In this document: one piece after another, positions 14,348 through 29,568 of the stretch
Numbering within the stretch: position 1 is the stretch's first letter
How the letters are laid out: each line of letters opens with the position of its first letter
Position numbers and translations under genes: made by a program
The notes under the pieces: generated by a model
What the model saw: only the letters and a program-made list of their open reading frames with translations
Told to the model about the DNA's origin: nothing
Databases searched by the model: none
Assembly (NCBI GenBank): GCA_017859655.1
Contig: JAFMMO010000001.1
Coordinates: 1-49,138 of the forward strand
Direction: 5' to 3'
Length of the DNA stretch: 49,138 nt
Source: Pseudomonadota bacterium
GTDB taxonomy: Bacteria > Planctomycetota > UBA8108 > UBA1146

Positions 14348-14373
14348 GGGTCTCTCCCCCGCGTGAGAGACCC
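14348..14373 (+). promoter_or_regulatory. perfect 9-bp hairpin in the 5' region of the large S8 protease gene
   Basis: GGGTCTCTC ccccgcgt GAGAGACCC, located 15-35 nt upstream of the candidate start codons 14388/14409. Confidence 0.25.
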
Positions 14374-14387
14374 GGTTCGCTCCTCGC

Positions 14388-17300
14388 GTGCCGGGGGAAG
14401 AGCCCGGCATGAGCCCACTCGGGTTCCCGAATCACGCCAACGGCACTGGCTCCCCATCGCCCCGGGAGCGCGCCGGGGCCCTGCGGTCCCCGCGCCCTGC
14501 GCGATCGATCCACCTCCAGCTGCAGCCTTGCGCGGTCGTCCTGCCCCCCGCGGTGCTCCCCGTCCTGACGGTGCTCCTCCTGACGGTGCTCCTCCTGACG
14601 GTGCTCCTCCTGACGGTGCTCGCCGCCCCCATCGCTCGCGCCGCCGAGCCGACCGCGCCCTCCGGCGTCGAGGGGGTGATCCTCGATCGCGGGCGATCCC
14701 TCACCCTGGTCCTCGATCCCACCGTCGTCTTCGTCCGCGTCCTTCCCGCCGCCGACGGGCGCGGGAGCTCGGATCCTCTCCTCGAGCTGCAGCGCCTGAC
14801 CGACGATCCCCTCTTCGAGGCCCCGACTCCCGAGGACATCCTCGAGTACCCCGGGCTCCTGCGCCTGCGCTTCCACGAGGAGACCACGGTCCCGGCGCGC
14901 CTCCTCGCCTTCGAGCGCCTCGCCGGGCTGCCCCGAACGGAGTGGGCCAGCGGCAACTTCCAGGACCCCGCCCGACCGTGGGAGCGGGCCTGGATGATCC
15001 CCACCCCGCAGATCGTCGTCTCCCTCGATGAGAGCGCGGCGAACCGTCGACTCGCCGAGCTTCTGGCCCTCACCGATCTGCCGGGCGGCGCCCGCCTCAC
15101 CCTCGACCGCGCGCTCCATGGGCCGCGACCGACCTTCGTCCTGCACACCGGCGCCGCCGCGCTCGATTCGTTTCGGGTCGCAGAGGTGGTGGCGGGACTC
15201 CCGGGGGTCGTCGCGGCGCAACCCGAGTTCATCCGTCGCCTCGAGTCCCACGGCACCCCCAGCGACACCCTCTTCCTGACCCAGTGGAACCTCCAGAACA
15301 CCGGCCAGCACGGAGGGACACCCGGGGCCGACATCCGGGCCGTTCCTGCGTGGGACATCGAGACCGGCTCCAGCGCGATCACCGTTGCGGTCATCGACGA
15401 AGGGGTCGATCACAGCCACCCCGACCTGGCCCCCCAGATGGTCGCGGGGTACGACGCGGTGACGGTCCCGACCGGCGGGCCGGGCTCCTCGCTGCCGGGG
15501 CAGGCGGACCCGGAGGATGCCCACGGGACCGCATGCGCCGGGATCATCGGCTCGAACGGGAACAACGGCATCGGCACCGCCGGAGTCTGCTGGAGCGTCT
15601 CCATCCTCCCGATCCGGATCGGGTTCGGGGAGTTCTGGACTCAGGACTCGTGGATCGCGGACGGCATCTCCGCCGCCGTCTCCCTCGGCGCGGATGTTCT
15701 CTCCAACTCCTGGGGGGGCGGGAGCCCCACCCCCATCGTCGATGCCGCGATCACCGCGGCGGTGACGAGCGGCCGTGGGGGCCTCGGCTGCCCGAGCGTC
15801 TTCTCCAGCGGCAACGCGGACATCGGGGAGATCGCCTATCCCGCCTCCCACGACCTGACCATCGCGGTCGGCGCGACCAGCCCCTGCGACGAGCGAAAGA
15901 GCCCGACCTCCTGCGATGGGCAGTGGTGGTGGGGGTCCCAGTTCGGTCCGGAGCTCGACCTCGTCGCTCCCGGTCCCTTCGTCACCACGACCGACAACTC
16001 CGGAGGGGCCGGCTACGCCGCCGGCAACTTCGTCGAGTTCTCCGGGACCTCCGCCGCCTGCCCCCATGTGGCGGGGGCCGCGGCGCTCGCCCTCTCGCTG
16101 AACCCGAGCCTCTCGGCCGCCGAGCTCCGCGACCTGCTCCAGTCGAGCGCGCGGGACGAGGTCGGCCCGCCCGCCGAGGACATCCCCGGCTGGGATCCCT
16201 ACATGGGCCACGGGCGCCTCGACCTGCTCCAGTTGCTCCTCTCCATGGGAGGAGGAACCCTCCCTCCCGGCGACTTCAGCTGCACGGCCGAGGGAGAGGA
16301 CGCCCTCCTCGAGTGGACGAACCCGGAGGTCTACGACCAGCTCCTCATCACCCGAAACCAGGTCCTCATCGCCAGCCTCCCCGGAGACGCGACCTCCTAC
16401 CTCGACCTCGCACCCGGGCTCGGGCTCCAACGCTACAAGGTGGCAGGGGTCACGGCAGCCGGCACGAGCCCCCGCACCGCGTGCGCCTCGATCGTCCTGG
16501 GGACCCCGACCGACCTCGTGTGGAGCCCGGCGCAGGGCTCGGTGCCGGGAGGGGCTCCGATCGCGGAGGCGCTCGTCTCCCTCGGGCGCGTCCCGGTGCT
16601 CGTCTCCGACCTCGCGGACGCCGGCGCCCTCGAAGCCTACGAGACGATCTGGGTGAACCTCGGGGTCTTCAACACCTCGGGGCCGAGCGGCAAGCATGTC
16701 CTGACCGCTTCGGAGGGGCAGGCCCTCGACGGGTACCTCGCGGCGGGGACCCCGGAGTCCCCGAGGTTCCTCTACCTCGAGGGCGCGGACACCTGGTTCT
16801 TCGACCCCCCCACGACCCTCCACTCCCGCTTCGGCATCGTCTCCAACTGCGATGGCTTCCCGACCCCGCAGCTCTCGATGATCTCCGGACTGCCGGGACC
16901 GCCCTGTTCCTTCGACACGCTGCAGTACGGCTATGTGGGAGAGGACGCGTTCATCGACCATCTGGAGGTGGCCCCGGGGAGCGGAGCGCAGCGGATCCTC
17001 GAGAATGATCCGCCCATCTTCGGCGTCGCGATCTCTCGCCAGTCGACGGGTCACGCGACGATCGGAGCGAGCTGGGAGCTGGCGGGCGTCGAGCCGGGCG
17101 GGAGTGATGTGCGCGACTTCGTCGCTGCGGCGCTGACCTGCTGGGGTGTCTCCTTCGATCTGGACCCGCACCCCACTCCGGTGTCGATCAACTCCTGCGT
17201 GGCGGTCAGCTCGACGAGTCAGCTGAGCTGGAACAACGGCGATCTGTACGACGAGATCCACGTGCTGCGGGACGGGGACCTGATCGCGGTCCTGCCGGGA

Positions 17301-18599
17301 GACGCCGGTGTCGCGATCGATCCGGTCGCCCACTCCGGCGTCAATGTCTACGAGGTGATCGGGATCTTCAGCGGGCTCCCGGCGGCCCCCGCCGTGTGCA
17401 GCGTCGACCACTCCGTGCCGAGCAACACGATCGAGGTCCCGCAGCTGCTCGTCGAGATCGGCGCGGCGATCGACCTCCCGGTCCTCGCTCACCACTCCCT
17501 CCCTCTGGAGGGATTCACGATCTCGGTCGTCTATGATCCGGGGGTCCTCGACCTCACGCAGGCGACCATGGCGGGAACCGAGCTCGAGGCGGCGGGCGCG
17601 GGGTACTTCGCTCCGCAGATCGATCCGGTGAACGGCGTCATCACCATCGCCGCCGTCATCGATCCCGTCCCCCCGGTGACCGGATCGATTCCTCCCGGAG
17701 ATGATCACGTGATCGTCCGACTCCTCGGTCAGCTCGCCCCTTCGGCGACCGTCGGCGCCAGCACGTCCGTCGAGATTCCGCAGAGCGTGGGCAGCCCGGC
17801 GGTGACCTCGATCTTCCTGCAAGGAGGAATGGTCGGCCACGAGCCCCAGAGGGTTTCCGGCTCGGTCACCGTCGTCGAGAATCTGGACCTCAGGCTCGAG
17901 GTCGCGGGGGACACCTCACAGCCGGGGGGAGGCGCCTCGACCCCGGTCCTGCTGACCACCGACCGCCCCCTCGTCGCCTACAGCTTCGGCCTCCCGTGGT
18001 CCGCCGATCAGCTCGCGCCGACCGGCGCCACCCTCGTGGGGACCGTCGGGGAGTCCGCCGCCTTCGCCCTGGTGACCATCGACCCCGTGGCGGAGGCGAT
18101 CACCGCTTCGGTGATCATCGACACGAGCGAGCCCTACGACCTGGTGATCCCCCCCGGAGCGGACTACCTGGCCCTGCAGGTCGAGTGGCTCGTCGACGCG
18201 CTGCTCCCGGCTCCCGCGGAGATCGTCATCCCGGTCGCGTCCGGTCTCGGCTCGCCACCGGTCGCGGTCGCGTTCACCGGCGCGAACAACCAGAATGTCG
18301 TCCCCCTGACCCTCGCCGGGACGATCCTCGTGCTGCCGAATCAGCGCTTCTTCCTGCGGGGAGATGCGAACGACGACGGAACGATCACCCTCGCCGACCC
18401 GATCGCACTGCTCTCCCATCTCTTTCAGGGCGTGCTCATCCCCTGCGAGGATGCAGGAGACGCGAACGATGATGGGATGGTCGACATCTCGGACGCGGTC
18501 TTCGTTCTGCAGCACCTCTTCACCGGAGGTCCCCCCCCCGAGCTCCCGTGGCCCGTCGCGGGGAGCGACCCGACGGCCGACACGCTCGGCTGCAGCTGA
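14388..18599 (+). CDS. giant secreted subtilisin-like (S8) serine protease with Fn3-like module, ~220-aa shared module, two cohesin-like modules and a C-terminal dockerin-like module
   Basis: Catalytic triad motifs AVIDEGVDHSHPDL (Asp), HGTACAGII (His) and GTSAACPHVAGAAAL (Ser). Long hydrophobic N-terminal signal. The C-terminal modules are listed as separate features. GTG start at 14388; the alternative ATG at 14409 (MSPLG) has a G/A-rich stretch upstream. Confidence 0.9.
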   Translation: MPGEEPGMSPLGFPNHANGTGSPSPRERAGALRSPRPARSIHLQLQPCAVVLPPAVLPVLTVLLLTVLLLTVLLLTVLAAPIARAAEPTAPSGVEGVILDRGRSLTLVLDPTVVFVRVLPAADGRGSSDPLLELQRLTDDPLFEAPTPEDILEYPGLLRLRFHEETTVPARLLAFERLAGLPRTEWASGNFQDPARPWERAWMIPTPQIVVSLDESAANRRLAELLALTDLPGGARLTLDRALHGPRPTFVLHTGAAALDSFRVAEVVAGLPGVVAAQPEFIRRLESHGTPSDTLFLTQWNLQNTGQHGGTPGADIRAVPAWDIETGSSAITVAVIDEGVDHSHPDLAPQMVAGYDAVTVPTGGPGSSLPGQADPEDAHGTACAGIIGSNGNNGIGTAGVCWSVSILPIRIGFGEFWTQDSWIADGISAAVSLGADVLSNSWGGGSPTPIVDAAITAAVTSGRGGLGCPSVFSSGNADIGEIAYPASHDLTIAVGATSPCDERKSPTSCDGQWWWGSQFGPELDLVAPGPFVTTTDNSGGAGYAAGNFVEFSGTSAACPHVAGAAALALSLNPSLSAAELRDLLQSSARDEVGPPAEDIPGWDPYMGHGRLDLLQLLLSMGGGTLPPGDFSCTAEGEDALLEWTNPEVYDQLLITRNQVLIASLPGDATSYLDLAPGLGLQRYKVAGVTAAGTSPRTACASIVLGTPTDLVWSPAQGSVPGGAPIAEALVSLGRVPVLVSDLADAGALEAYETIWVNLGVFNTSGPSGKHVLTASEGQALDGYLAAGTPESPRFLYLEGADTWFFDPPTTLHSRFGIVSNCDGFPTPQLSMISGLPGPPCSFDTLQYGYVGEDAFIDHLEVAPGSGAQRILENDPPIFGVAISRQSTGHATIGASWELAGVEPGGSDVRDFVAAALTCWGVSFDLDPHPTPVSINSCVAVSSTSQLSWNNGDLYDEIHVLRDGDLIAVLPGDAGVAIDPVAHSGVNVYEVIGIFSGLPAAPAVCSVDHSVPSNTIEVPQLLVEIGAAIDLPVLAHHSLPLEGFTISVVYDPGVLDLTQATMAGTELEAAGAGYFAPQIDPVNGVITIAAVIDPVPPVTGSIPPGDDHVIVRLLGQLAPSATVGASTSVEIPQSVGSPAVTSIFLQGGMVGHEPQRVSGSVTVVENLDLRLEVAGDTSQPGGGASTPVLLTTDRPLVAYSFGLPWSADQLAPTGATLVGTVGESAAFALVTIDPVAEAITASVIIDTSEPYDLVIPPGADYLALQVEWLVDALLPAPAEIVIPVASGLGSPPVAVAFTGANNQNVVPLTLAGTILVLPNQRFFLRGDANDDGTITLADPIALLSHLFQGVLIPCEDAGDANDDGMVDISDAVFVLQHLFTGGPPPELPWPVAGSDPTADTLGCS
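14565..14624 (+). repeat. 15-bp in-frame tandem repeat (3 perfect + 1 diverged copy) encoding the signal-peptide hydrophobic core
   Basis: CTGACGGTGCTCCTC occurs three times (14565-14609), then CTGACGGTGCTCGCC. A degenerate copy lies just upstream. Translation is ...LTVLLLTVLLLTVLLLTVLAAP. Confidence 0.9.
17430..17880 (+). other. cohesin-like module 1 (domain within the S8 protease)
   Basis: IEVPQLLVEIGAAIDLPVLAHHSLPLEGFTISVVYDPGVLDLTQATMAG...GVITIAAVID...VIVRLLGQL...SGSVTVV follows the type-I cohesin pattern: a G-x-V-x-[VL]PV strand, then a [FY]-x-[ILV]-x-YDP-x-[VL]L strand, and a terminal G-x-[IV]-x-V. Confidence 0.55.
17889..18335 (+). other. cohesin-like module 2 (domain within the S8 protease)
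   Basis: LRLEVAGDTSQPGGGASTPVLLTTDRPLVAYSFGLPWSADQLAPTGATLVG...AITASVIID...YLALQVEW...AGTILVL has the same strand pattern as module 1 but is more diverged. Confidence 0.45.
18348..18596 (+). other. dockerin-like module (domain within the S8 protease)
   Basis: FFLRGDANDDGTITLADPIALLSHLFQG...C.DAGDANDDGMVDISDAVFVLQHLFTGGPPPELPWPVAGSDPTADTLGCS. Confidence 0.65.
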
Positions 18600-18611: not shown

Positions 18612-19028
18612 TCAGATCATCCAGTCCGGCTCGTCCTCCTCCGGAGGCTCGATGACGTTTCCCTCGTCGATGCCGCCGGAGGAGCCGAGGTCGTCCGGAT
18701 CCCCGGCATCGAAGTCCATGTCGTCGGATGGGGGGTCCGCGCCGCCGTAGCGGTTCCGTCGGGCGATCCCCTCCCGGACCTCCCGCTGGTACTCGAGGCG
18801 GAGGCGCTCGTACTCCTCGGGCGAGATGTCATCCGCCTCGACGATCCGCCCCTCCATCCCCTCCTTGTGCAGCCGGATCAGGAACGGAATGCACCACCCG
18901 CAGCCGGTCCCCGCGCCGAAGCACTCCGAGACCTGGGAGGCCCGCCGGGGGCTCCGCTGGCGGATGAAGTTCACGATCTTCCGCTTCTTGACGCGGAAGC
19001 AGTAGCAGACCAGATCGTCGAGTTCCAT
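18612..19028 (-). CDS. bfd: BFD-like [2Fe-2S]-binding domain protein with acidic C-terminal tail
   Basis: The N-terminus VCYCFRVKKRKIVNFI...CFGAGTGCGWCIPFL gives the C-x-C...C-x2-C pattern of bacterioferritin-associated ferredoxin. The C-terminal ~45 aa are Asp/Glu/Pro-rich. Confidence 0.75.
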   Translation of the reverse strand: MELDDLVCYCFRVKKRKIVNFIRQRSPRRASQVSECFGAGTGCGWCIPFLIRLHKEGMEGRIVEADDISPEEYERLRLEYQREVREGIARRNRYGGADPPSDDMDFDAGDPDDLGSSGGIDEGNVIEPPEEDEPDWMI

Positions 19029-19111: not shown

Positions 19112-20143
19112 ATGGCCGACCTTCGATCCGACACCGTGACCCACCCGACCGAGGCGATGTACGAGGCCCTCCGCGCGGCCCCGCTCGGGGATGATGTGTT
19201 CGGGGACGACCCGACGGTGAATGCGCTCGAGGAGGAGGCCGCCGCCCTCCTCGGCAAGGAGGCCGCCATCTTCACCCCCACGGGCACCATGGCGAACTCC
19301 ATCGCGATCGCGGTCTCGACCCGCCCCGGGGATGAGATGATCCTCATGGAGGACAGCCACATCTTCCTCTACGAGGCGGGGGGCTCCGCCCGCCTGTGGG
19401 GAGTGCACGCGCGCCCGCTCCCGGCCGCGTCCGGGGTCCTCACCCCGGAGGCGGTCCGCGCGGTGATCCGGGCGGACGACCCGCATCACCCCCGGACCCG
19501 ACTCGTCTGCCTCGAGAACACGCACAACATGCAGGGCGGGCGGGTCGTCCCCACGGAAGCGATCGAGGCGGTCGCGGAGGTCTGCCGATCGGAGGGGCTC
19601 CACCTCCATCTGGACGGCGCGCGCCTCTTCCACGCGGCGGTCGCCCTCGGCGTTCCTCCCGCGGAGGTCGCACGCCCGGTCGACACCGTCAGCGCCTGCT
19701 TCTCGAAGGGCCTCTCCTGCCCGGCCGGGAGCATCCTCGCCGGGTCCGCGTCGGCGATCACCGAGGCGCGGCGGGTTCGGAAGGTGCTGGGAGGAGGGAT
19801 GAGGCAGGTGGGCATTCTCGCCGCGCCGGCCCGCGTCGCCCTGCAGCGCGGGATCGACCGCCTCCGAGAGGATCACCTCCGGTGCTCCCGCCTCGCCGAG
19901 GGACTCCGCCCCCTCGCCGGCGCCACGCTCAACCCGGATCCACCCCAGAGCAACATCCTCTTCGTCCGGTTCGAGGGTCTCGATGGCGCCGGTCACGAGT
20001 CCCTCGTGGAGAAGCTCGGGGAGCGGGGAGTGCGCGCCCTGACCGCCGGGCATCGGGGCATCCGCCTCGTGACCCACCGCCAGATCGCCGACGGCGATGT
20101 CGAGCGGACCATCGAGGCGTTCCACGCCCTCCGGGCGGAGTGA
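19112..20143 (+). CDS. ltaE: low-specificity L-threonine aldolase (PLP-dependent)
   Basis: MADLRSDTVTHPTEAMYEALRAAPLGDDVFGDDPTVNALEEEAAALLGKEAAIFTPTGTMANSIAI is the canonical N-terminal signature. The FSKGL lysine region is present. Confidence 0.9.
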   Translation: MADLRSDTVTHPTEAMYEALRAAPLGDDVFGDDPTVNALEEEAAALLGKEAAIFTPTGTMANSIAIAVSTRPGDEMILMEDSHIFLYEAGGSARLWGVHARPLPAASGVLTPEAVRAVIRADDPHHPRTRLVCLENTHNMQGGRVVPTEAIEAVAEVCRSEGLHLHLDGARLFHAAVALGVPPAEVARPVDTVSACFSKGLSCPAGSILAGSASAITEARRVRKVLGGGMRQVGILAAPARVALQRGIDRLREDHLRCSRLAEGLRPLAGATLNPDPPQSNILFVRFEGLDGAGHESLVEKLGERGVRALTAGHRGIRLVTHRQIADGDVERTIEAFHALRAE

Positions 20144-20446
20144 CTCGCAAGGACGCAAGCCTATCAATCGAAAGGACTTGTGGAGATTCGTCCGCGAGCC
20201 GCCTGCCGCTTCCGAACCCGGGGTCCGCGGGGATACCTTCCCCATGCAACCCAGCCCCCCCCTCCGGGATCGGACCTCACCATGTGTTACTCTCCTGAGA
20301 GCCCGCGTTGCTCCTCCACCGCCCCCGCCCGCGGCTCGTCCGCGCGCTCGGGGAGCCGGAGCGCCCGGATCATTCCCCTGCGACCGTCGCGGGCGGACTC
20401 CGGGGTGTCGTCCCCGTCCCCGACCCGAAGGAGCGCGAGCCCCGCA

Positions 20447-21064
20447 ATGGATCCCCGAACCCCCGACCCCTCCCCGGAGGAGAGCGCGGGGGAGCTCCTC
20501 CCGCTCACCGACCGCGACGACGCCACCCTGGCGCGCGCGGCGGGACAGGGGGACGAGGCTTCCTTCCGCACTCTCATCGAGCGCTACGAGCGCCTCCTGT
20601 TCAAGATCGCCCTGCGCAAGGCGGGAAACCGGGCCGACGCCGAGGACATCGTTCAGGATGTCTGCATGCACGCGTGGCGCTCCCTTGCGAAGATCCGGGA
20701 TCCGCAGGCCTTCCTCGGCTGGCTCATGGCGATCGCCCACAACCGCGCCAACCGCTACTGTGATCGCCGCCGGCGAAAGGTCGTCGTCCTCGACGAGGCG
20801 CGGCGGACCCTCGAGGAGCGCGCCCGCGCCCGCGCCGAGCGCGCGGAGGCGGATGAGGACGGCGGGGAGCTGGTCCGCCGGCTCCCGGATGAGATGCGCC
20901 TCGCCCTCAGCTGGAAGTACCTCGACGGGTGCTCCTACGAGGAGATCGGCGAGCGCCTCGACATGAGCTTTCACCAGGTCGACTACCTGCTCCGCCGAGC
21001 CAAGGCGGCGCTCCGTCGTGAAGTCGAGCGCGTCGAGCGCTCCGGAGAGGAGGGACTCGCATGA
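20447..21064 (+). CDS. ECF-type RNA polymerase sigma factor (sigma-70 family, group 4)
   Basis: Region 2 (FRTLIERYERLLFKIALRKAGNRADAEDIVQDVCMHAWRSL) and region 4 (LRLALSWKYLDGCSYEEIGERLDMSFHQVDYLLRRAKAALR). ATG at 20447 with GAAGGAG upstream. The stop overlaps the next start (ATGA at 21061-21064). Confidence 0.9.
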   Translation: MDPRTPDPSPEESAGELLPLTDRDDATLARAAGQGDEASFRTLIERYERLLFKIALRKAGNRADAEDIVQDVCMHAWRSLAKIRDPQAFLGWLMAIAHNRANRYCDRRRRKVVVLDEARRTLEERARARAERAEADEDGGELVRRLPDEMRLALSWKYLDGCSYEEIGERLDMSFHQVDYLLRRAKAALRREVERVERSGEEGLA

Positions 21065-21855
21065 TGTCCGCTCTCGAATCCTGCCGCTGGGTCCGGACCC
21101 AGCTTCCCCGCTTCCTCGACGGGGAGCTCGCCCCCGACCTCGAGACCCGCGTGTCCGGGCATCTCGACCGCTGCGCCGCCTGTCGGGCCGAGCTCGCCGT
21201 GGAGCGGGATCTCCTCCTCGACACCCTCGAGCTGCTCTCCCCCACCCGGCCGCCGCAGGGGATGGTCGACGCGGTGATGGCGCGGATCGCGGAAGAGGCG
21301 GCCGGCGCCCCCGCCCCGACCCCCGTCATCCCCGTCCTGAGGCCGCGCAGGAGGGCTTTCGGCCCCTCCCTGGCCGCGGCCGCCCTCCTCGCGTTCGTCG
21401 TCTGGGCGATCTCGGGCGACAATGGAGGAGGAGCCCCCTCGGTCGGACCGAGCGGGCCCCTCGCGATGCTCGAGAGCGGCGGTCCCGGCCCCACGGTCGA
21501 CGGCCCCGGCCTCGGCGATCTGGGAACGGCGATCTCCGAGGAGGAGGCCCTCTTCGGCGCGGAGAACCGGAGCGAGTCGACGACGATCGAGCTCGTCCGC
21601 TTCGATGTGAACGCGGACGAGCAGTTCGACCAGCGCGACCTCGATGCCCTCAACCGGCATCTCACCGAGGGGATCGCGATCGCCTGCCCGGCCGCCGCGG
21701 ATGTCGACGAGGATGGCTGGCTGACGCCTCAGGACTCGATCCGGGCCTTCCAGCACTTCTCCACCGGAGAGATCGAGGTCTCCTCGGCGATCAGCCGCAC
21801 CGTCGAGTACGACATCGGGGGTCCCCTCCACTGCTCGTACCAGGCCTGTCCCTGA
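21061..21855 (+). CDS. membrane-spanning anti-sigma factor (zf-HC2 / HxxxCxxC type) with extracytoplasmic dockerin-like module
   Basis: Translationally coupled to the ECF sigma gene. N-terminal HLDRCAACRAEL motif. One TM segment (FGPSLAAAALLAFVVWAI). C-terminal DVNADEQFDQRDLDALNRHL ... DVDEDGWLTPQDSIRAFQHF. Confidence 0.8.
   Translation: MMSALESCRWVRTQLPRFLDGELAPDLETRVSGHLDRCAACRAELAVERDLLLDTLELLSPTRPPQGMVDAVMARIAEEAAGAPAPTPVIPVLRPRRRAFGPSLAAAALLAFVVWAISGDNGGGAPSVGPSGPLAMLESGGPGPTVDGPGLGDLGTAISEEEALFGAENRSESTTIELVRFDVNADEQFDQRDLDALNRHLTEGIAIACPAAADVDEDGWLTPQDSIRAFQHFSTGEIEVSSAISRTVEYDIGGPLHCSYQACP
21601..21780 (+). other. dockerin-like double Ca-loop module in the anti-sigma factor
   Basis: Two D-x-[ND]-x-D-x(5,6)-D-x(3)-[LF]-x(2)-[HF] repeats separated by a Cys-containing linker (IAIAC). 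Confidence 0.5.
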
Positions 21856-21973
21856 TCGACCGAGATCCGGCGCGAGACTTTCGAGAGCCCCCCACCCCGT
21901 CGGACCGCGGGTCCGCCGGGGTGACATCCGTTCCTCCTCCCCGGAGGTCCGGACCTGAAGCGAACCGCACGAG

Positions 21974-23500
21974 GTGGGAGTGAGCCCCGTGTCCCGACGA
22001 TCGATCCTTCTCGCCGTCACCGCCCTCGCCGGCGTCGCCCTGCTCGTGGGAGAGTCCTCCCCGGCCGCGGCGGAGAGACCCGCCGTCCGCGTCCCGGGGG
22101 ATGAGTCCGCGCCCCCGAAGGCCGACGATGCGCCGTCCGGAGACGAGGCGAGCGAGAGCGCGGAGGCGCTCGCCCTCCTCTACACGATCCACAACGAGGG
22201 ATACATCGAGCCCTGCGGCTGACCGAAGAAGAAGGTGAAGCTGGGCAGTTTGGCCCGGCGCAAGACGTACCTCGACAGCGTGGCCACCGAGGGGATCGAT
22301 CCGGTCCTCGTCGATGGCGGAGACTGGCTCTTCGAGCTCGGCAACGTCCGGATGAACAAGTTCGCCGAGCGTCAGCTGCGCCAGAAGGCGGAGCTCATCG
22401 TCGACGCCTACAACGAGTTCGGGTACGACGCCGCCGCGATCGGGGAGCACGACCTCGCCTTCGGGATCGAGTTCGTCGAGGCGCTCGCCGCGCGCGCGCG
22501 CTTCCCCTTCCTCTGCGCGAATCTCCTCCGGGACGGCGCCCCCATCTTCCCCGGCTCGACCGTCATCGAGCGGGCCGGGTTCCGCGTCGGCGTCATCGCG
22601 ATCCTCATGGAGCTCCCCGACCGCTTCCTCGAGAAGTACTCCCCGGGGCTCACCGTCGGGAGCCACCGGGAGGCGCTCGCCCGCGAGCTGGAGAAGCTCG
22701 GGGATGAGGTCGACACGGTGGTCCTCCTCGGCCATGTCGAGCAGACCGACATCATGGAGATCGCGGACACGGTGAAGGGGATCGACTTCATCCTCCACCC
22801 CGCGGGGTTCTCCGGGAACGAGCCGACCTGGATCAACGACGGCGAGGAGATCACCGAGCGGAACGGGAAGGTCCTGCTGAAGATCAGCGGTCAGGGCTCC
22901 ACCGTCGGCCGGCTCGACCTCTACCCCTCGGAGCGGGGCGCGCCCTGGCACAACTTCGCCGAGGAGCCGCAGGCGACCGGGAACCTCTACTTCCCGACGC
23001 TGACCCGACTCGCGAGCCACATCGGGAAGCACCCCGGGATCGACGCCCTCGTGAACGAGTTCCTCAAGGGGACCCGCTACCGGGGCTTCACCGAGGAGGA
23101 CCTGACCTTCGTCCCGGCGACCGACTACCTGACCGCCGACACCTGCAGCGTCTGTCACCTTGAGCAGGCGGAGTTCTGGCGCGGCACGGGACACGGCAAG
23201 GCCTACCAGACCCTCGTCGATGCCGAGAGCCAGTTCCGCTACGACTGCATCTCCTGCCACGTGCTCGGCTACGGCGAGACCTTCGTGGATGCCCACGCCG
23301 TGGGTCCGTACAAGGATGTCCAGTGCGAGTCGTGCCACGGGAAGAACCCGCAGCATCCGACCGCCCCGGCGGACCACCCGTGGCCCAAGGTGAACACCGA
23401 GACCTGCTGGTCCTGTCACGACCCGAGGGTCACCCGTGTCCCGTTCGATGTGAGCGCCGGCCTGCCGGCGGTGACCTGTCCGCCCCTGAAGCGGAACTGA
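21974..23500 (+). CDS. exported degenerate 5'-nucleotidase/metallophosphoesterase-like protein fused to a tetraheme cytochrome c; candidate selenoprotein with in-frame TGA (Sec) at 22220-22222
   Basis: ORFs 21974-22222 and 22235-23500 share one frame and are separated only by the TGA. The sole signal peptide (SRRSILLAVTALAGVALLVG) is upstream of the TGA, while the four CxxCH heme sites that need export are downstream (TCSVCH, DCISCH, QCESCH, TCWSCH). Alignment to the downstream paralog: YTIHNEGYIEPCG*PKKKVKLGSLARRKTYL versus YSVNVTGEIDVCGCKRKKVRQGSITRRGSYI, so the TGA falls on a conserved Cys. Confidence 0.7.
22240..22259 (+). promoter_or_regulatory. SECIS-like hairpin downstream of the in-frame TGA
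   Basis: GCUGGGC AGUUUG GCCCGGC: a 7-bp stem (one G-U pair) with a 6-nt apical loop containing GU. The stem starts 17 nt after the UGA and the loop about 24 nt after it, which is within the spacing generally described for bacterial SECIS elements. Confidence 0.5.
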
Positions 23501-23595
23501 TCCTGAGAAGAGAGACCCCGCCGGTCCGCCCTCCGGGAGCGGGCCCGTGCACAGTGAACGAGCCCCGTGCCCCGCACGGGATGGAGGCCCAAGGG

Positions 23596-25113
23596 ATGAA
23601 CCCGACCCGCGACAACGGTCCGACCCGCCCCCCGCTCTGGGTGGCGCTCGCCCTCCTCCTCGGAGGACTGCTGCTGCTGACCCTCGGTGACGAGCCACGC
23701 GCCGAGGCGGCGATGGGACCGCTGGTGATCCCCGCGAGCGTCGATGACGACATTCGCAACGTCTTCGTCGTCTACTCCGTGAACGTGACGGGGGAGATCG
23801 ATGTCTGCGGCTGCAAGCGCAAGAAGGTCCGCCAGGGCTCGATCACGCGCCGCGGCAGCTACATCCGTCAGGCCCGTCACCTGCACCCGTCGCTCGTCGC
23901 CCTCGACGCGGGGAACACCCTGGTCGGCCCGGACGACAAGCGCACCACCGACCTCGAGCTCGCCCAGACGATGGAGAAGGCGAAGGTCCTGATCGAGTCG
24001 TACAACCGTCTCGGCTACGCCGCGATGGGAATCGGGAACTTCGACCTCCTCCTCGGGATGGAGCGCCTCCGCGAGCTCCAGAAGATGGCGAGCTTCCCCC
24101 TGATCTGCGCGAACCTCGTCGACGCCGAGTCGGGAGAGCCGGTCTTCCCCCCCACCCATGAGGTGGAGTCGGGGGGAGTGCGGATCGGCCTGCTCGGACT
24201 CACCCTCGAGGGGATCCCGCAGTACTACCTCGACAAGGCCTCCCCGGATCGCTCCCTGCGCACCCGGGACGTGATCGAGACCGCGCGGCAGTACGTGCCG
24301 GCGCTCGCGGAGCGGAACGATGTGGTCGTGGTCTTCTCGATCAACGATGTCGACCGGAACCGGGAGCTCGCCGAGCAGGTGGAGGGGATCGACTTCCTCG
24401 TCGATCCGCTCATCGAGCTCGGCAACCACAAGCTCTGGGTCGATGACGACAAGCTCATCGAGTCGAAGGCCGACACGAACATCCTGCGCATGGACGCCCA
24501 GGGGGCCCGCGTCGGGACCCTCGACATCTTCGTCCGGCCGAAGCCGAGCCGCCCGATCGTCGATGGGTCCACGGGAGAGGTCCCTCCCGGTCGCAGCGAG
24601 TACTGGTTCGAGAAGATCTCCCTCGAGCCGCACATGCTCGAGGACCCCGAGATCGTCGCCCTCGTCGATGCCTATCGGGCCCAGGCGAGCATCGTCGATG
24701 TCGCCAAGCTGCCGCCGATGCCCCACAAGGACCGTTACCTCACCGCGGACACCTGCAAGGCCTGCCACACCGAGCAGTACGACTTCTGGAAGCGCACGAC
24801 CCACGCCGACGCCTTCGCGAGCCTCGAGGAGACCGGCGATCAGTGGCGCCAGGACTGCATCCCCTGCCATGTCCTCGGCTACGGTCAGGCGTTCCTCGCA
24901 CCGGCGGACGCCGAGCCGTACAAGGATGTCCAGTGCGAGAACTGCCACGGCCTCAATCCCCAGCACCCGCTCGACCCGAAGGGGAACCCGTGGCCGAAGA
25001 TCGAGGAGAAGAGCTGCCTCGTCTGCCACAACAAGGAGCAGACCCGGAGCGACTTCCACTTCTTCAAGGAGAAGCCGAAGATCGCGTGCCCGCCGCTTCA
25101 GCGGACGCCCTGA
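23596..25113 (+). CDS. exported degenerate 5'-nucleotidase/metallophosphoesterase-like protein fused to a tetraheme cytochrome c (Cys-containing paralog)
   Basis: ATG at 23596 with GGAGG 9 nt upstream (alternative ATG at 23581). Signal/TM segment LWVALALLLGGLLLLTLG. The motif GEIDVCGCKRKKV replaces the DxH metal motif. DAGNTLVG and GIGNFD are remnants of phosphoesterase motifs II/III. Four CxxCH sites (TCKACH, DCIPCH, QCENCH, SCLVCH). Confidence 0.85.
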   Translation: MNPTRDNGPTRPPLWVALALLLGGLLLLTLGDEPRAEAAMGPLVIPASVDDDIRNVFVVYSVNVTGEIDVCGCKRKKVRQGSITRRGSYIRQARHLHPSLVALDAGNTLVGPDDKRTTDLELAQTMEKAKVLIESYNRLGYAAMGIGNFDLLLGMERLRELQKMASFPLICANLVDAESGEPVFPPTHEVESGGVRIGLLGLTLEGIPQYYLDKASPDRSLRTRDVIETARQYVPALAERNDVVVVFSINDVDRNRELAEQVEGIDFLVDPLIELGNHKLWVDDDKLIESKADTNILRMDAQGARVGTLDIFVRPKPSRPIVDGSTGEVPPGRSEYWFEKISLEPHMLEDPEIVALVDAYRAQASIVDVAKLPPMPHKDRYLTADTCKACHTEQYDFWKRTTHADAFASLEETGDQWRQDCIPCHVLGYGQAFLAPADAEPYKDVQCENCHGLNPQHPLDPKGNPWPKIEEKSCLVCHNKEQTRSDFHFFKEKPKIACPPLQRTP

Positions 25114-25135
25114 GTCGTCCGCTCGGCTCGGATGA

Positions 25136-25177
25136 GAAGGAGGGGGTGGAGGCCGGGCGGCCTCCACCCCCTCCTTC
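25136..25177. terminator. perfect 19-bp palindromic hairpin at a convergent junction (bidirectional terminator candidate)
   Basis: GAAGGAGGGGGTGGAGGCC gggc GGCCTCCACCCCCTCCTTC, between the stop at 25113 (+) and the stop at 25198 (-). Confidence 0.6.
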
Positions 25178-25197
25178 CATCTCCGGCCCCCCCGGCC

Positions 25198-26580
25198 TCA
25201 GGACCCGGCGGGACCGATCCGCCAGACCGGATCCGGGAGCCGCAGGACCTCATCCGCGCTCCCCACTCCTTCGAGACTCGATCCCCCCGCATCGATGCCA
25301 TCCACCCCCACCGACCAGAGCAGCCGGCGGGCCCGGTCGTAGCGGAGAGGCTCCCCGCTGAACGGATCGAGGGGGAGGGCGTCGAGGGACGGAGTGGCCG
25401 CGAGGAGGCTCTCGAGGTCGGGGGGCAGCTCTCCGTGCACGCGACGGTAGCGGCCCAGGGCGACCATCGTGCATCCGACACTCTCGAGGAGGGCCACCGA
25501 CTCCACCTGCTCGAAGCGGCCGGCGAAGCCGGGGAGGATGATGTCGAGGAAGCGGACCCCCGCGTTCCCCTGAACGAGCACCTGCCAGAGGGGGGTCTTC
25601 TCCGGAGGGGCGGGAGCGGGTCGGCTCCGTCGCTCGACCGGAGTGAGACGCACCTCCTCGATGAGCGCGCGGAAGTGATCGGCGAGGAGCGCCCGCGTCG
25701 CGTTCGGCTTGAAGAAGGGTCCGGCCAGCGCGACCTCCTGCTGGACGGTGCTGCGGTGCTCCGGAGCGCAGATCGTGTTCGCGCTCGTCCAGTACTCATG
25801 CCGAAGGCTCTCGGCGAAGCGCTCCCGCAGCCGCGGTCCCGCCGGCGGGCGGGCGAGGAGGCGCCCCTCCACCTCCGGATCGAGGGGGGGCCCATCAGGG
25901 TCGATGCTCTCCTGCGCGAGGGCGATGAGCTGCTCCCACGCGGGGCGATGGACCGCGATCCCCACGAGCATCCAGATCAGCGCGGTGTTCCCCTCGTTCA
26001 CGGTCCGATCGGCGAGCCGGATCCCCCTCTCGATCCGGCGCGAGCTCTCGGCGAGATCCCCATCGAGGCGCGCGGCGAGCCCCCACACCCGGATCGCCAT
26101 GGCGAGGTCGCGGATCCCCGAGATCTCGGGGATCGGATCGAGGAAGGTCTCCAGGCTCTCGACCCCGAAGACCGGCAGGTCGAGCGCGGCATCGACCGCG
26201 GGGGCGCTCGGCCCGCCCGCCTCGATGAGCTCTTCGAGGACGGCGCGCTCGACGCTCCACGCCTCGGGATCGAGAGGTGTCGGACCGAAGGGGTCGGCTG
26301 CCCCCGCCTCGATGCGGTCATCGAACCACGACTCGGCTCGCTCCGCCGCGCGCCCGAGGCGGTCGAGCTCCTCGACCGCGGTCTGCACGGTCCCGGGAGG
26401 ATTCCGGACGGGAGTCGGCTCGAGGTCGGCATCGTCGATCGGGGGGATGTCCTGCAGCCAGACTGCCGCGGCGGCGACAAAGAGCAGGAGGAGCAGCCCG
26501 CACCCGATCCATCCCCGCCTCTTCGAGCTTCGCATCCCGTCCGTGGGGCAATCCTCGGTCGGCGCGAGGTCGGCTTCCAT
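25198..26580 (-). CDS. N-terminally membrane-anchored helical protein, unknown function
   Basis: ATG at 26580 with GAAGGAG 8 nt upstream. TM segment GWIGCGLLLLLFVAAAAVWL. The rest has protein-like, non-repetitive composition, ending in a DPFSGEPLRYD motif that resembles pseudopilin-type DPWG motifs. No family recognised. Confidence 0.6.
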   Translation of the reverse strand: MEADLAPTEDCPTDGMRSSKRRGWIGCGLLLLLFVAAAAVWLQDIPPIDDADLEPTPVRNPPGTVQTAVEELDRLGRAAERAESWFDDRIEAGAADPFGPTPLDPEAWSVERAVLEELIEAGGPSAPAVDAALDLPVFGVESLETFLDPIPEISGIRDLAMAIRVWGLAARLDGDLAESSRRIERGIRLADRTVNEGNTALIWMLVGIAVHRPAWEQLIALAQESIDPDGPPLDPEVEGRLLARPPAGPRLRERFAESLRHEYWTSANTICAPEHRSTVQQEVALAGPFFKPNATRALLADHFRALIEEVRLTPVERRSRPAPAPPEKTPLWQVLVQGNAGVRFLDIILPGFAGRFEQVESVALLESVGCTMVALGRYRRVHGELPPDLESLLAATPSLDALPLDPFSGEPLRYDRARRLLWSVGVDGIDAGGSSLEGVGSADEVLRLPDPVWRIGPAGS

Positions 26581-26710: not shown

Positions 26711-29401
26711 ATGGTCCCCATCCACATCCGTGTCCTTCTCACCACCCTCGCCCTCCTTGGCAGCCTCACCTCCGCTCGGCTCCCCGCCGCGGAGGAGTTT
26801 CAATCCCGCTTCGAGGAGCAGGTCGACCGGATCTGGGTCGGACCGGAGTTCCAGGCGTGCCGTCATCAGGACTGGCGGGTGAGGGGCGGCTGGCTCGAGT
26901 GCGCCGAGGCGCGGGCCCGCTACCCGATGCGCACCTGCTCCCTCCTCGCCCGGGAGATCGATCCCGCCCGGGGAGGCTTCTCCCTTCGGGCCGAGGTGCG
27001 TCCCATCACGAGCGAGCCGACCACCGCGCCGCGGGCCGCGGGGTTCCTCGTGGGAGTCGGGGACCTCGACACGGACCCGCGGCTGCGGGCGCTGGTGCAG
27101 GGGGTGCCCGCCCCCGGAGGCGGTCTCCTCGCGGTCGTCGACGAGCGGGGGAGGGCCTCCTTTCGCGACTTCTCCACGCGGCCGGCGCGGGTCGGCTTCT
27201 GGAGCATCGATGGGCCCCTCGCGGAAGATGCCTGCGGGCCGCTCCCCGGCGTGACCCTCCAGGGGGAGGGACTCGAGGGGAGCTGGCAGGATGAGCATCT
27301 CCTCCTCGTGCTCGAGGTCGAGACCGCCGCCGCGGAGACGGTGCGGCTCACCCTGAGAGTGCTGCGCGACGGGGGCGACGAGCTCTCCCGCGCCGTGGTC
27401 GATGGCATCCCGAGGGCGCGCCTCGCCGGCTCGATCTCCCTCCTCAGTCACGGCGGCGGCGCCGGGCACGGCTTCCGGCGGGTGAGGCTGGACGGTCCGG
27501 GCGTCGTCGACACCCCGGAGAGCACGGTCGGTCCCGTGATCGGAGTGTTCTACACCGTCGACCCCGACGCCCTGAAGCTGACCGCCCAGCTCCCGCCCCT
27601 CGGCCCCGAGGATCCTCCGACCGCGGAGCTGCAGCTGCTCGGGGATGACGGAGAGTGGACAACGGTGGCGACCGCTCCCCGTCGGCCCCTCTCCGACACC
27701 TGCCACTTCCGGGTCGACCGCCACCCCGCGGTCCGGGATACGGCGTTTCGCGTCGTCACGGCCCTCGCCCGGCGCGAGGGGGAGCCGCTCCGCTACACCT
27801 ACGACGGCACGATTCGAGGAGAGCCGGCCTCGGGGGACCCCCTCGACATCGCCCTGATCAGCTGCGTGAAGAACTACACCGGCGACCTCGCCTGGAGCTC
27901 GAGCCGGATCTGGTATCCCCACGCGGAGGTGGTCGATGCGATCCTCGCGAGCGAGCCCGACCTGCTCCTCTGCGCCGGGGACCAGATCTACGAGGGGGAC
28001 CTCAGCGGGCCGGACCGATCATCGGAGACCGCGACACGCCTCGACTTCCAGACGAAGTGGCAGCGCTTCCTCCTCGCCTTCGGATCGATCACCCGCTGCA
28101 CCCCCACCGTCGTCATCCCGGATGATCACGATGTCTTCCACGGGAACCTGTGGGGGGCCGGGAACGAGCGCGGGCCGGCCGTGAAGGGGATGACGGTCCA
28201 GGACCGCGGGGGCTACAAGCTCTCCCCGGAGCTCGTGAACATGGTCCACGACGCCCAGACCGGCCATCTCCCCGACCCGGTCGACCCGGCTCCGATCGCC
28301 GGAGGGATCCGTCCCTACTTCACCCGCCTCGAGTACGGAGGGCTGTCCCTCGCGATCATCGGGGATCGAATGTGGAAGAGCGCACCGAGCGTCGTCCTCC
28401 CCGAGGGGCAGATCGTCAATGGCTGGGCCCGGAACCCCGAGTTCGACTGGGTCCGCGACGGGGATCCTCCCGGGGCGGTCCTCCTCGGCGAGCGGCAGGA
28501 GTCTTTCCTCGCGGACTGGGTCGTCGACTACTCCCACGAGGCGCGCTGGAAGGTCCTCCTCGGGCAGAGCGTCTTCGCGAACGTCGCGACCCTGCCCCCC
28601 CCGGCGAACTCCGATGCCGTGGTCCCCGGGCTCCCGATGCCGGAGAAGGGGGAGTACCCCGAGGGGGAGCTCGTCGCCGCCGACGGGGACTCGAACGGCT
28701 GGCCGCGGACGCCCCGCAACCGCGCCGTCGGCATCCTGACCCGGGGCTCGGCGCTGCACCTCAGCGGTGACCAGCATCTCGCGAGCGTCATCCGCTATGG
28801 GATCGACCGGCCGGGAGATGCCGGGATCGCCTTCGGAGGCCCCTCGGTCGCGAACACCTGGCCCCGTCGGTGGTTCCCCTCCACTCCCGGCCTGAACCGC
28901 GCCCCCGGCGCTCCGGCGTACACCGGTGACTTCCTGGACGGCTTCGGCAACCCGATGCGCGTCCTCGCCGTCGCGAACCCGGCGAAGACCGGCCGGGAGC
29001 CCGCGCTCCTGCACGACCGGGTCCCCGGGTTCGCCCTCGTCCGCCTCGACCCGGGAAGCTCATCGGTCACCCTGGAGTGCTGGCCTCGCGGCGTCGACCC
29101 TCTCGACCCGGAGGCGCAGCAGTACTCCGGCTGGCCGATCACGATCTCGGCGCGGGAGCTCGATGGGCGGGAGCCCTGGGGGACCCTCATCCCGGTGACC
29201 TCTCCTCCCGATCGCGCCGTCCCCCTCGTCGTGCGCGTCCGTCGGGAGCCGGGCGGCGAGATCATCGCGGCGCGCCGCCTCGCTCCCGGGGAGACCTGGC
29301 ACCCCCCCGTCTTTGAGCCGGGGACCTACACCGTCGAGAGCGGCGACGGAGAGGGGCCCTGGCGGGTGAGCCGGGGTCAGGGCGCCGTTCCCCGCCGCTG
29401 A
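26711..29401 (+). CDS. secreted PhoD-like metallophosphatase with large N-terminal domain of unknown function
   Basis: GGAGGAATC precedes the ATG. Signal peptide MVPIHIRVLLTTLALLGSLTSARLPAA. Phosphoesterase motifs LLLCAGDQIYEGD, VVIPDDHDVFHGNLWG and HLSGDQHLASV. Confidence 0.7.
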   Translation: MVPIHIRVLLTTLALLGSLTSARLPAAEEFQSRFEEQVDRIWVGPEFQACRHQDWRVRGGWLECAEARARYPMRTCSLLAREIDPARGGFSLRAEVRPITSEPTTAPRAAGFLVGVGDLDTDPRLRALVQGVPAPGGGLLAVVDERGRASFRDFSTRPARVGFWSIDGPLAEDACGPLPGVTLQGEGLEGSWQDEHLLLVLEVETAAAETVRLTLRVLRDGGDELSRAVVDGIPRARLAGSISLLSHGGGAGHGFRRVRLDGPGVVDTPESTVGPVIGVFYTVDPDALKLTAQLPPLGPEDPPTAELQLLGDDGEWTTVATAPRRPLSDTCHFRVDRHPAVRDTAFRVVTALARREGEPLRYTYDGTIRGEPASGDPLDIALISCVKNYTGDLAWSSSRIWYPHAEVVDAILASEPDLLLCAGDQIYEGDLSGPDRSSETATRLDFQTKWQRFLLAFGSITRCTPTVVIPDDHDVFHGNLWGAGNERGPAVKGMTVQDRGGYKLSPELVNMVHDAQTGHLPDPVDPAPIAGGIRPYFTRLEYGGLSLAIIGDRMWKSAPSVVLPEGQIVNGWARNPEFDWVRDGDPPGAVLLGERQESFLADWVVDYSHEARWKVLLGQSVFANVATLPPPANSDAVVPGLPMPEKGEYPEGELVAADGDSNGWPRTPRNRAVGILTRGSALHLSGDQHLASVIRYGIDRPGDAGIAFGGPSVANTWPRRWFPSTPGLNRAPGAPAYTGDFLDGFGNPMRVLAVANPAKTGREPALLHDRVPGFALVRLDPGSSSVTLECWPRGVDPLDPEAQQYSGWPITISARELDGREPWGTLIPVTSPPDRAVPLVVRVRREPGGEIIAARRLAPGETWHPPVFEPGTYTVESGDGEGPWRVSRGQGAVPRR

Positions 29402-29568
29402 CGGCTCGCGATCCGCCGACGCGGGGGCAGAGGGACGGACGAGGGGTCGGGGGGGCCGATGGGCGGAAATCCCCGCCCCCTGCGGTACGATGGAGAGCGC
29501 GGACCTCCGCCGGCTGGGGGGTGTCCCCCGCCGGCCGCTCGCACCCGCCTTCTGCCGAGGAGCCCCCG

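Follow-up and report, generated by a model that had tools for sequence, protein, structure and literature searches.

A predicted selenoprotein gene and its cysteine paralog, UshA-like proteins fused to a c554-type tetraheme module, in a Planctomycetota contig

The DNA analyzed here, a stretch of 49,138 nucleotides (nt) from contig JAFMMO010000001.1 of GenBank assembly GCA_017859655.1 (Planctomycetota in the GTDB lineage; G+C content of ~70%) that we call the window, holds two adjacent genes on the forward strand, gene A and gene B. We identify them with high confidence as a selenoprotein gene and its cysteine (Cys) paralog from the NCBIfam protein family NF041198, annotated “UshA-like (seleno)protein” (UshA_like_PCGU). 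An earlier note, made from the sequence alone, had described this pair as tandem paralogs that combine a 5'-nucleotidase-like fold with four c-type hemes, and the layout of both genes agrees with that description (Table 1). Gene A consists of two open reading frames (ORFs), 21974-22222 (82 codons) and 22235-23500 (421 codons), which lie in one frame and are interrupted solely by the TGA at 22220-22222. Reading this codon as selenocysteine (Sec, U) yields the translation ...YIEPCG-U-PKKKVKLGSLARR..., within the wider stretch ...LYTIHNEGYIEPCG-U-PKKKVKLGSLARR..., and a protein that ends in ...AVTCPPLKRN. An alternative GTG start at 21980, which gene callers chose on near-identical contigs, gives a product of 506 amino acids (aa). 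The corresponding loop of gene B reads ...EIDVCGCKRKKVRQGSITRR..., and its C terminus is ...KIACPPLQRTP, such that both proteins carry the terminal C-P-P-L recorded in the earlier note. The overall sequence identity of the two proteins is 34%, with 27.8% in the N-terminal domain (N-domain) and 49.2% in the heme domain. The spacer between the genes is 95 nt long (23501-23595) and carries a G+C-rich inverted repeat, CCCGTGC...GCACGGG, directly before the start of gene B.

Table 1. Genes and sequence features of the gene A/B locus (positions in the window; n = 95 homologs where invariance is given)
Feature	Position	Strand	Remarks
ECF-type sigma factor gene	20447-21064	+	Pfam Sigma70_r2 5e-17, Sigma70_r4_2 9e-10
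Anti-sigma gene	21061-21855	+	zf-HC2 1.3e-9, Dockerin_1 5e-6; overlaps sigma gene by 4 bases
Gene A	21974-23500	+	Predicted selenoprotein, 508 aa; signal peptide, degenerate 5'-nucleotidase N-domain, c554-type tetraheme C-domain
Gene A signal peptide or N-terminal anchor (…SRRSILLAVTALAGVALLVGESSPAAA)	21974-22072	+	Hydrophobic segment read from the translation
Gene A C-G-U codons TGC GGC TGA	22214-22222	+	TGA 22220-22222 read as Sec83
SECIS-like hairpin GCUGGGC-AGUUUG-GCCCGGC	22240-22259	+	Starts 18 nt, loop 24 nt past UGA; loop contains G-U
Gene A heme 1 motif CSVCH	23144-23158	+	Invariant in 95/95 homologs
Gene A heme 2 motif CISCH	23246-23260	+	Aligns with cytochrome c554 heme II, penta-coordinate catalytic-type position
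Gene A heme 3 motif CESCH	23324-23338	+	
Gene A heme 4 motif CWSCH	23405-23419	+	
Gene A terminal C-P-P-L	23477-23488	+	Cys502 at the family's usual His position; predicted distal ligand of heme 4
Gene B	23596-25113	+	Cys paralog, 505 aa, architecture as gene A
Gene B C-G-C codons (Cys71, Gly72, Cys73)	23806-23814	+	Invariant in the alignment
Gene B heme 1 motif CKACH	24754-24768	+	
Gene B heme 2 motif CIPCH	24856-24870	+	Equivalent of c554 heme II
Gene B heme 3 motif CENCH	24934-24948	+	
Gene B heme 4 motif CLVCH	25015-25029	+	
Gene B terminal C-P-P-L	25087-25098	+	Cys498 at the His/Cys ligand position

The UGA of gene A is very probably read as selenocysteine. The G+C content at third codon positions is coding-like on both sides of this codon (0.90 and 0.92), and it is the sole credible case of its kind in the window; a second in-frame TGA (36286, minus strand) was rejected as a Sec candidate, as it only marks the junction between two adjacent genes. 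The TGA of gene A aligns with the second Cys of the C-G-C motif in gene B and is kept in 9/9 gene A orthologs (47-64% identity), in which the neighboring codons vary synonymously while the peptide is preserved on either side of the site. In a wider set of 95 distinct homologs drawn from many phyla, to which all family-wide counts below refer, the codon at this site is TGA in 45 and TGC or TGT in 50, always at the second position of C-G-x, and the 36 Sec-form members from other phyla likewise show protein-level conservation on both sides of the split. A further argument comes from the heme domain. The attachment of c-type heme occurs outside the cytoplasm and requires export through the Sec secretion pathway. 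The downstream ORF on its own (22235-23500) has no signal peptide, yet it contains the four CxxCH motifs, and for this reason only the read-through product makes biological sense. Export through the twin-arginine translocation pathway was rejected, given that the twin Arg in the N terminus of gene A is not conserved in the orthologs and that heme attachment needs the Sec pathway. Gene callers split gene A into products of ~80 aa and 413-421 aa, and public annotations mostly reduce the Sec forms of the family to ~413-421 aa.

Past the UGA, a hairpin resembling a selenocysteine insertion sequence (SECIS) is present in 9/9 orthologs, where it takes one of two registers; 83% of the cells are paired, and one base pair changes on both sides, from G-C to C-G. 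The fold energy of the downstream region did not discriminate between Sec and Cys codons. As a separate observation, Sec-form genes of distant lineages (Gammaproteobacteria, Desulfobulbia, and others; loci L023, L038, L047, L050, L065, L075, L078, and L079) share a near-identical hairpin, CUGGGC-GGUCU-GUCCAG, over the codons for L-G-G-L-S-R/K at 12-30 nt past the TGA. Cys-form genes encode the same L-G-G-L-S-R/K peptide with other codons and have no such hairpin.

The family to which both genes belong is already catalogued, and the gene pair is an independent rediscovery of an uncharacterized selenoprotein family rather than a new one. Gene B passes the NF041198 cutoff of 275 bits with 278.6 bits, and both proteins match both parts of this profile (positions 16-278 and 350/402-518 of 519). 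Since the profile covers the N-domain and, separately, the heme region, the fusion of an UshA-like domain to hemes is the normal architecture of the family. Near the N terminus, gene A carries E-P-C-G-U and gene B carries D-V-C-G-C, with V in place of the P found in 78 of the 95 homologs. A profile search against 1.84 billion representatives retrieved 4,960 cluster representatives (50% identity) at an E value of 1e-30 or below, and at least 509 family loci were identified in species-representative genomes, distributed over Planctomycetota, Verrucomicrobiota, Acidobacteriota, Desulfobacterota, Myxococcota, Eisenbacteria, Armatimonadota, some Gammaproteobacteria, and others. The entry “COG0737, UshA-like, CxU” was among the major selenoprotein families of the Global Ocean Sampling survey, where it comprised 76 Sec sequences (Zhang & Gladyshev 2008, PMC2398784), and the family reappears in later selenoprotein reviews with no function assigned (PMC9312934, PMC13188914). 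It shares with gene A and gene B the two-domain architecture, the C-G-U/C motif, and the alternation of Sec and Cys, and is known by computational prediction alone.

The C-terminal domains of both proteins match the cytochrome c554 family (Pfam PF13435) with E values of 5.8e-11 (43.6 bits; gene A) and 4.8e-13 (50.3 bits; gene B), against a threshold of 20.8 bits; together with the four CxxCH motifs of each protein, this supports the c554-like tetraheme module proposed in the earlier note. All four CxxCH motifs are invariant in 95/95 homologs, as are two further His residues of the heme domain, H403 and H457 (residue numbers here and below are those of gene B). None of the other His, Met, Lys, Tyr, or Cys columns of this domain exceeds 60%, except one C-terminal position ~11 residues past a conserved Phe, which holds His in 64 and Cys in 31 of the 95 homologs and nothing else. 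Because such a strict His/Cys alternation is expected for a heme axial ligand, we predict this role for the tail position. In genes A and B, this Cys is the C of C-P-P-L. All 22 sequences of a Planctomycetota clade that includes genes A and B (see below) have Cys here, and outside that clade the tail Cys is found only in Sec forms (9/36 versus 0/37 Cys forms; Fisher p = 0.001, phylogeny ignored).

Aligning gene B with cytochrome c554 (PDB accession no. 1bvb) pairs CKACH with C11-C14-H15, H403 with H27, CIPCH with C60-C63-H64 (heme II), and CENCH with C88-C91-H92. In c554, we take hemes III, I, and IV to have H27, H102, and H179, respectively, as their distal ligands and heme II to be five-coordinate. 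By this comparison, the family would have three conserved distal ligands for four hemes, and it is heme 2 (CISCH/CIPCH) that is predicted to be left open, because its alignment partner is heme II. Moreover, the distal ligand of heme 4 in the Planctomycetota clade is predicted to be Cys instead of His. A penta-coordinated heme sits at the same position of the module in c554, MccA, and OTR, and catalysis occurs at such a heme (PMC9250108). More generally, c554 (PDB accession no. 1bvb and 1ft5) and the N-terminal modules of MccA, OTR, and OcwA resemble the module described here in their CxxCH spacing, in the equivalents of c554 H27 and H102, and in a second heme without a conserved distal ligand. 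They differ in that c554 stands alone and carries electrons in ammonia oxidation, whereas in genes A and B a 5'-nucleotidase-like domain precedes the module, which in the clade has apparently exchanged one distal His for Cys. Related c554-like modules also occur in another kind of fusion, in which two of them are joined to two TlpA/AhpC-like thioredoxin-fold domains with a C-P-H-C motif (proteins P0037 and P0045, also P0057, the last of which bears the generic database label “peroxiredoxin”).

As for the N-domain, the AlphaFold model of gene B (mean predicted local distance difference test [pLDDT] score of 84.9, predicted template modeling score of 0.80) was compared with the PDB by Foldseek, which returned 3ivd, UshA, and CD73 at E values of 1e-19 to 1e-21; the matches were 5'-nucleotidases only, with no closer structure. 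A profile search against the PDB also matched the N-domain to 5'-nucleotidases (E value of 5e-28). The 5'-nucleotidase-like fold is thus borne out. With UshA, CD73, CpdB/YfkN, and SoxB the proteins share, besides this fold, the remnants of motifs II and III, a G-G-x-A-R-R helix, and the interdomain helix. The remnants read as quoted in the earlier note (DGGDWLF/DAGNTLV and GEHDLAFG/GNFDLLLG in gene A/gene B) and align with the GD and GNH[DE] of canonical 5'-nucleotidases. What sets the proteins apart is that their dimetal ligands are incomplete, that neither has a match to Pfam Metallophos (PF00149) at an E value of 1 or below, and that the 5_nucleotid_C domain is absent from both, with the tetraheme module in its place. 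The linker helix between the N-domain and the heme module is retained (351-364 in the gene B model).

The 95 homologs were aligned with four canonical 5'-nucleotidases and scored for the seven dimetal ligands (D-x-H, G-D, G-N-H, H, and G-H-x-H). The D-x-H is replaced by H-N-E in gene A and by N-V-T in gene B, G-D is kept as G-D in gene A and reads G-N in gene B, G-N-H has become G-E-H and G-N-F, the motif IV His is H in gene A and I in gene B, and motif V is lost in both. Gene A thus keeps 3/7 and gene B 1/7 canonical ligands, and since none of the 95 members keeps more than 5/7, the dimetal center is gone throughout the family, as the earlier note had supposed for the pair. The same note had placed C-G-C/U at the position of D-x-H. 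This part does not hold: the equivalents of D-x-H, H-N-E and N-V-T, stand just before the conserved Gly, and C-G-C/U follows 8-10 residues past the D, where the gene B model has a loop that joins strand 1 (54-61) to helix 1 (82-96). In line with this, some homologs keep D-V-H-G while carrying P-C-G-U.

Unlike the old metal site, the C-G-C/U motif is invariant in 95/95 homologs, including the Gly between its two outer residues, and no ortholog lacking it was found in this set. Besides C71-G72-C73/U, the only invariant or near-invariant residues of the N-domain are the Gly past the old motif I, G81 and R/K85 (in the G-G-L-x-R-R helix), D104, G106, and N173, as well as a D/E that replaces the Glu/Asp of G-N-H-[DE]. 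The clade additionally has a K/R-rich stretch past the motif (P-K-K-K-V-K and K-R-K-K-V-R). A variant arrangement is found in protein P0113 (1207 aa; also P0123 and P0128), which contains two UshA-like domains with the motif variants G-P-C-E-C (first) and A-C-G-C (second); in P0113, a DsbA-like domain lies between the two and a tetraheme module follows.

In a neighbor-joining tree of the family, the 22 Planctomycetota sequences mentioned above (from 13 loci) form one clade, which splits into a monophyletic group of 9 Sec forms and another of 13 Cys forms. This reciprocal monophyly points to one old duplication in Planctomycetota, after which one copy was a Sec form and the other a Cys form. 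Tandem Sec and Cys copies, with the Sec copy first, are present in 9/13 clade loci. At L013, a tenth locus, a family member cut by the contig end, its Sec status unreadable, precedes the Cys form, and the remaining three (L015, L018, and L019) have the Cys form only. Because the paralogs are kept as a tandem pair, they probably act together, and the retention of both suggests nonredundant roles, possibly in a heteromer. Compared with NF041198 at large, the clade is distinguished by a Cys copy with V or T for P ahead of the motif, by G-S for G-G before the helix, by the K/R-rich stretch, by Cys for His as the predicted tail ligand, and by the conserved tandem pair. What the present analysis adds to the catalogued family is the invariance data, the incomplete dimetal site of all 95 members, the predicted open heme 2, the His/Cys switch in the tail, and the old Sec/Cys duplication of this clade together with its location behind an ECF sigma/anti-sigma pair.

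Directly upstream of gene A, on the same strand, lie genes for an extracytoplasmic function (ECF) sigma factor and its anti-sigma factor. The sigma factor has regions 2 and 4 only, and its partner carries an N-terminal HxxxCxxC (H-LDR-C-AA-C), as is characteristic of pairs of ECFs and zinc-binding anti-sigma factors; beyond this motif, the partner has one hydrophobic segment and a dockerin-like outer domain (...SGHLDRCAACRAEL...). In 11/13 clade loci, a homologous sigma gene is located 0.8-2.6 kb upstream of the cytochrome gene or genes, with the anti-sigma gene directly preceding them. The pair therefore probably switches on the cytochrome genes, as judged from this arrangement. The earlier note had called it “redox-type”; the position, strand, and HxxxCxxC stand, and the redox type is unproven, given that the membrane segment and the dockerin-like outer domain would fit an envelope sensor better than a thiol switch of the RsrA type. 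Neither a sigma-70 promoter nor an intrinsic terminator was detected in 20100-25400, a result compatible with cotranscription with the sigma pair or with ECF-dependent transcription but no proof of either, and inspection by eye found no shared ECF-type promoter motif.

Taken together, redox rather than hydrolytic chemistry appears to be the likeliest function of the two proteins, as the earlier note had proposed: the dimetal site is lost, and MccSep (ExtKL, GSU2937-2936; PDB accession no. 9wt8 and 9wt9) of Geobacter sulfurreducens provides a precedent as a periplasmic pentaheme Sec enzyme (PMC13510729). In MccSep, a D-G-U-P loop from a nonheme domain puts Sec beside a His/Cys-ligated heme, Arg and Lys residues favor anionic substrates, and polysulfide and, less well, selenite are reduced via an Se-(S/Se)-S intermediate that the hemes reduce in turn (PMC13510729). 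Gene A resembles it as a periplasmic multiheme c-type cytochrome with a Sec loop from a nonheme domain and as a gene split at the UGA by gene callers. MccSep is an analog and not a relative, since its profile NF040886 scores 11 bits (gene B only) against a cutoff of 250. Its five hemes are combined with an Ig-like domain, and a long stretch of sequence separates its Cys ligand from Sec. In the gene A/B proteins, by contrast, Sec comes two residues after Cys on a 5'-nucleotidase fold, and the predicted Cys ligand belongs to heme 4, not to the presumed catalytic heme 2. Two further likenesses come without any sequence relationship: TsdA, SoxAX, and DsrJ have His/Cys-ligated c-type hemes in sulfur metabolism, comparable to the thiolate-ligated heme predicted here, and the G-C-U-G of thioredoxin reductase also places Cys and Sec close in sequence. 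Thioredoxin reductase uses flavin, not heme. The analogy with SoxB drawn in the earlier note found no specific support, and a SoxB-type function was rejected: TIGR04486 gave 41.1 and 51.7 bits against a cutoff of 550, and SoxB was a weaker PDB match than ordinary 5'-nucleotidases.

With moderate confidence, we read the proteins as periplasmic, heme-wired Cys/Sec redox enzymes. More tentatively, within this reading, their chemistry could be that of a nucleophile acting on a small inorganic or low-molecular-weight substrate. The catalytic center would be the C-G-U/C-G-C pair on the loop past strand 1, working with heme 2. In true 5'-nucleotidases, the C-terminal domain closes over the active-site face of the N-domain, and here the tetraheme module takes the place of that domain; in addition, C-G-C/U comprises the only invariant N-domain residues able to ligate or react at a heme. 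On these grounds, we infer that the loop faces heme 2. Sec83 of gene A or Cys73 of gene B would then be the nucleophile that attacks an oxidized small substrate, while the Cys two residues before it might resolve or hold the adduct or act as the heme-proximal partner. Hemes 1, 3, and 4 would form the wire that carries electrons from a periplasmic pool to reduce the adduct, the K/R-rich stretch past the motif might favor an anionic substrate, and a thiolate-ligated heme 4 could, like its counterparts in cytochromes that handle sulfur, lower one step of the wire. The fusions of related c554 modules to C-P-H-C domains and the family member with a DsbA-like domain (P0113), both described above, lend this proposal some indirect backing.

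Several observations weigh against this reading at one level or another. With regard to selenocysteine, the tRNA scan and domain annotation found no selA/selB/selD-type machinery genes and no tRNA-Sec in the 49-kb window, the Rfam scan of the window gave no SECIS family and no matches, the fold energy past the UGA is unremarkable compared with shuffles (z = -0.02), and the covariation statistics of the hairpin are poor for the nine orthologs, as 49/500 shuffles reach the observed value. With regard to the family, gene A scores 270.7 bits against NF041198 with U entered as C, ~4 bits under the cutoff. With regard to the mechanism, confidence in the gene B model is, within the folded N-domain, lowest at the C-G-C/U loop (pLDDT of ~60, falling below 50 at residues 75-77). 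Finally, for the function, literature searches on the family yielded list entries only, with no function, structure, or experiment for any member. The family is also present in lineages that we believe to be mostly aerobic. Genomic contexts across phyla are heterogeneous and mostly nonrespiratory (Bat/VWA/DUF4159 operons, DUF1573, cystathionine enzymes, and housekeeping genes). Surveying the contexts of orthologs, as suggested in the earlier note, recovered the upstream sigma gene within the clade and, across phyla, lineage-specific neighbors but no common operon from which a substrate could be named; nothing in these contexts points to sulfur or selenium.

Alternatively, C-G-C/U might bind a metal ion, for instance, Cu(I), beside heme 2, with Cys and Sec as ligands in a heme c-copper site like that of MccA. 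Parallels are not difficult to find: two Cys thiolates hold Cu(I) in MccA, C-x-C binds Cu(I) in copper chaperones, and acetyl-CoA synthase uses Cys-Gly-Cys to bind Ni. The central Gly of C-G-C/U is itself invariant, which would suit such a site. Furthermore, published phylogenies put the c554 module nearest to MccA, and the active heme of MccA occupies the same position (PMC9250108). Nevertheless, no further conserved metal-ligand residues accompany C-G-C/U, copper-handling genes occur in none of the contexts examined, and Sec is only ever found at the second position, as is typical of a nucleophile paired with a resolving Cys. We regard a metal site as a serious, though less likely, alternative.

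The same Cys/Sec pair could also serve in a thiol-disulfide relay on envelope proteins or low-molecular-weight thiols, as a heme-coupled analog of Dsb/TlpA. The fusion of related c554 modules to TlpA/AhpC-like C-P-H-C domains and the DsbA-like domain in one family member, both described above, would fit this idea. So would the verrucomicrobial members that end BatA/VWA/DUF4159 operons, as Bat operons are linked to periplasmic reducing power, and the wide distribution of the family, including the presumably aerobic lineages, with its housekeeping contexts; control by an ECF likewise suggests a role in envelope stress. Hemes, however, are one-electron carriers, and we know of no heme-driven protein disulfide reductase. 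Given that an open, catalytic-type heme and a His/Cys ligand switch fit small-molecule chemistry better, we consider the relay a still weaker candidate.

That the proteins are plain periplasmic electron carriers, with the 5'-nucleotidase-like domain as a scaffold and C-G-C as a structural vicinal disulfide, strikes us as improbable. It is true that the equivalent loop of CD73 contains the segment CVDASRC, whose first Cys aligns with the second one of C-G-C and whose two Cys we take to form the structural disulfide Cys51-Cys57, and that cytochrome c554 itself is an electron carrier (PMC9250108). Yet Sec is costly, and it is found exactly at this position in 45 Sec forms; moreover, C-G-C/U is kept in every homolog while the old active site drifts, which argues for catalysis. 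Least probable by far is that the TGA is a true stop, making gene A a pseudogene or two genes, or that the N-domain is still a phosphoesterase: the split made by gene callers, the lack of Sec machinery in the window, and the three canonical ligand residues kept in gene A are outweighed by the recurrence of the same split, with conservation on both sides, in 9 orthologs and 36 members of other phyla, by a downstream part devoid of an export signal, and by a ligand set that is incomplete in every member.

Returning to a heme-wired Cys/Sec redox enzyme, the value of the locus lies in the size and obscurity of the family, the MccSep precedent, and a specific, testable picture of an active site. 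The UshA-like CxU proteins are among the more abundant predicted selenoprotein families in ocean metagenomes, with no member of known function or structure. MccSep, characterized in 2026, demonstrates that an entire respiratory step can be carried by one periplasmic multiheme Sec enzyme, and the present family is an obvious candidate to be characterized next in the same way. It is tempting to speculate, although we think it doubtful, that these proteins represent a large enzyme class in which a dead 5'-nucleotidase domain presents a Cys-Sec pair to an open heme for a reaction new to enzyme families, with the Planctomycetota clade as an obligate Sec/Cys heteromer that has a thiolate-ligated heme and is under ECF envelope-stress control. 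If this were true, the class could use its hemes to reduce or oxidize sulfur, selenium, or other small species. The handles offered are a probable catalytic heme, residues to mutate, a natural switch between His and Cys ligands, and a natural Sec/Cys pair side by side. If only the ordinary reading were true, the locus would be a recognized but miscalled selenoprotein gene, split or shortened in public annotation.

Elsewhere in the family, two recurrent neighborhoods of its genes were noted. In Verrucomicrobiota and some Planctomycetota, the Cys-form gene closes a conserved operon that encodes BatA/VWA (~690 aa), VWA (~730 aa), a ~960-aa coiled-coil membrane protein, and DUF4159 (~230 aa), as found in loci L045, L049, L061-L063, L066, L068, L071, L081, L084-L086, and L088. 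In Thermoguttaceae and Pirellulales, a gene for a DUF1573/HYDIN-type Ig-like protein lies immediately upstream of the family gene (L053, L057, L067, L076, and L090), and in one protein (P0253) the two are fused.

In the window itself, the gene A/B pair is followed on its 3' side by a gene for a 460-aa protein without a Pfam match (25198-26580, minus strand) and one for an 896-aa PhoD-like phosphatase (26711-29401, plus strand), and the same order of these two is seen in near-identical contigs and in ortholog loci of 62% identity (L001-L008). Two very large subtilase (Peptidase_S8) genes flank the region at 14367-18599 (plus strand, ~1,410 aa) and 29317-32430 (plus strand, ~1,037 aa), and a gene for a small Fer2_BFD protein is located at 18612-19028 (minus strand). 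A gene that runs off the end of the window (47687-49138, minus strand) matches Pfam PF05761 (E value of 1e-114), the HAD-type cytosolic 5'-nucleotidase family, which is better known from eukaryotes and whose fold is unrelated to that of UshA.

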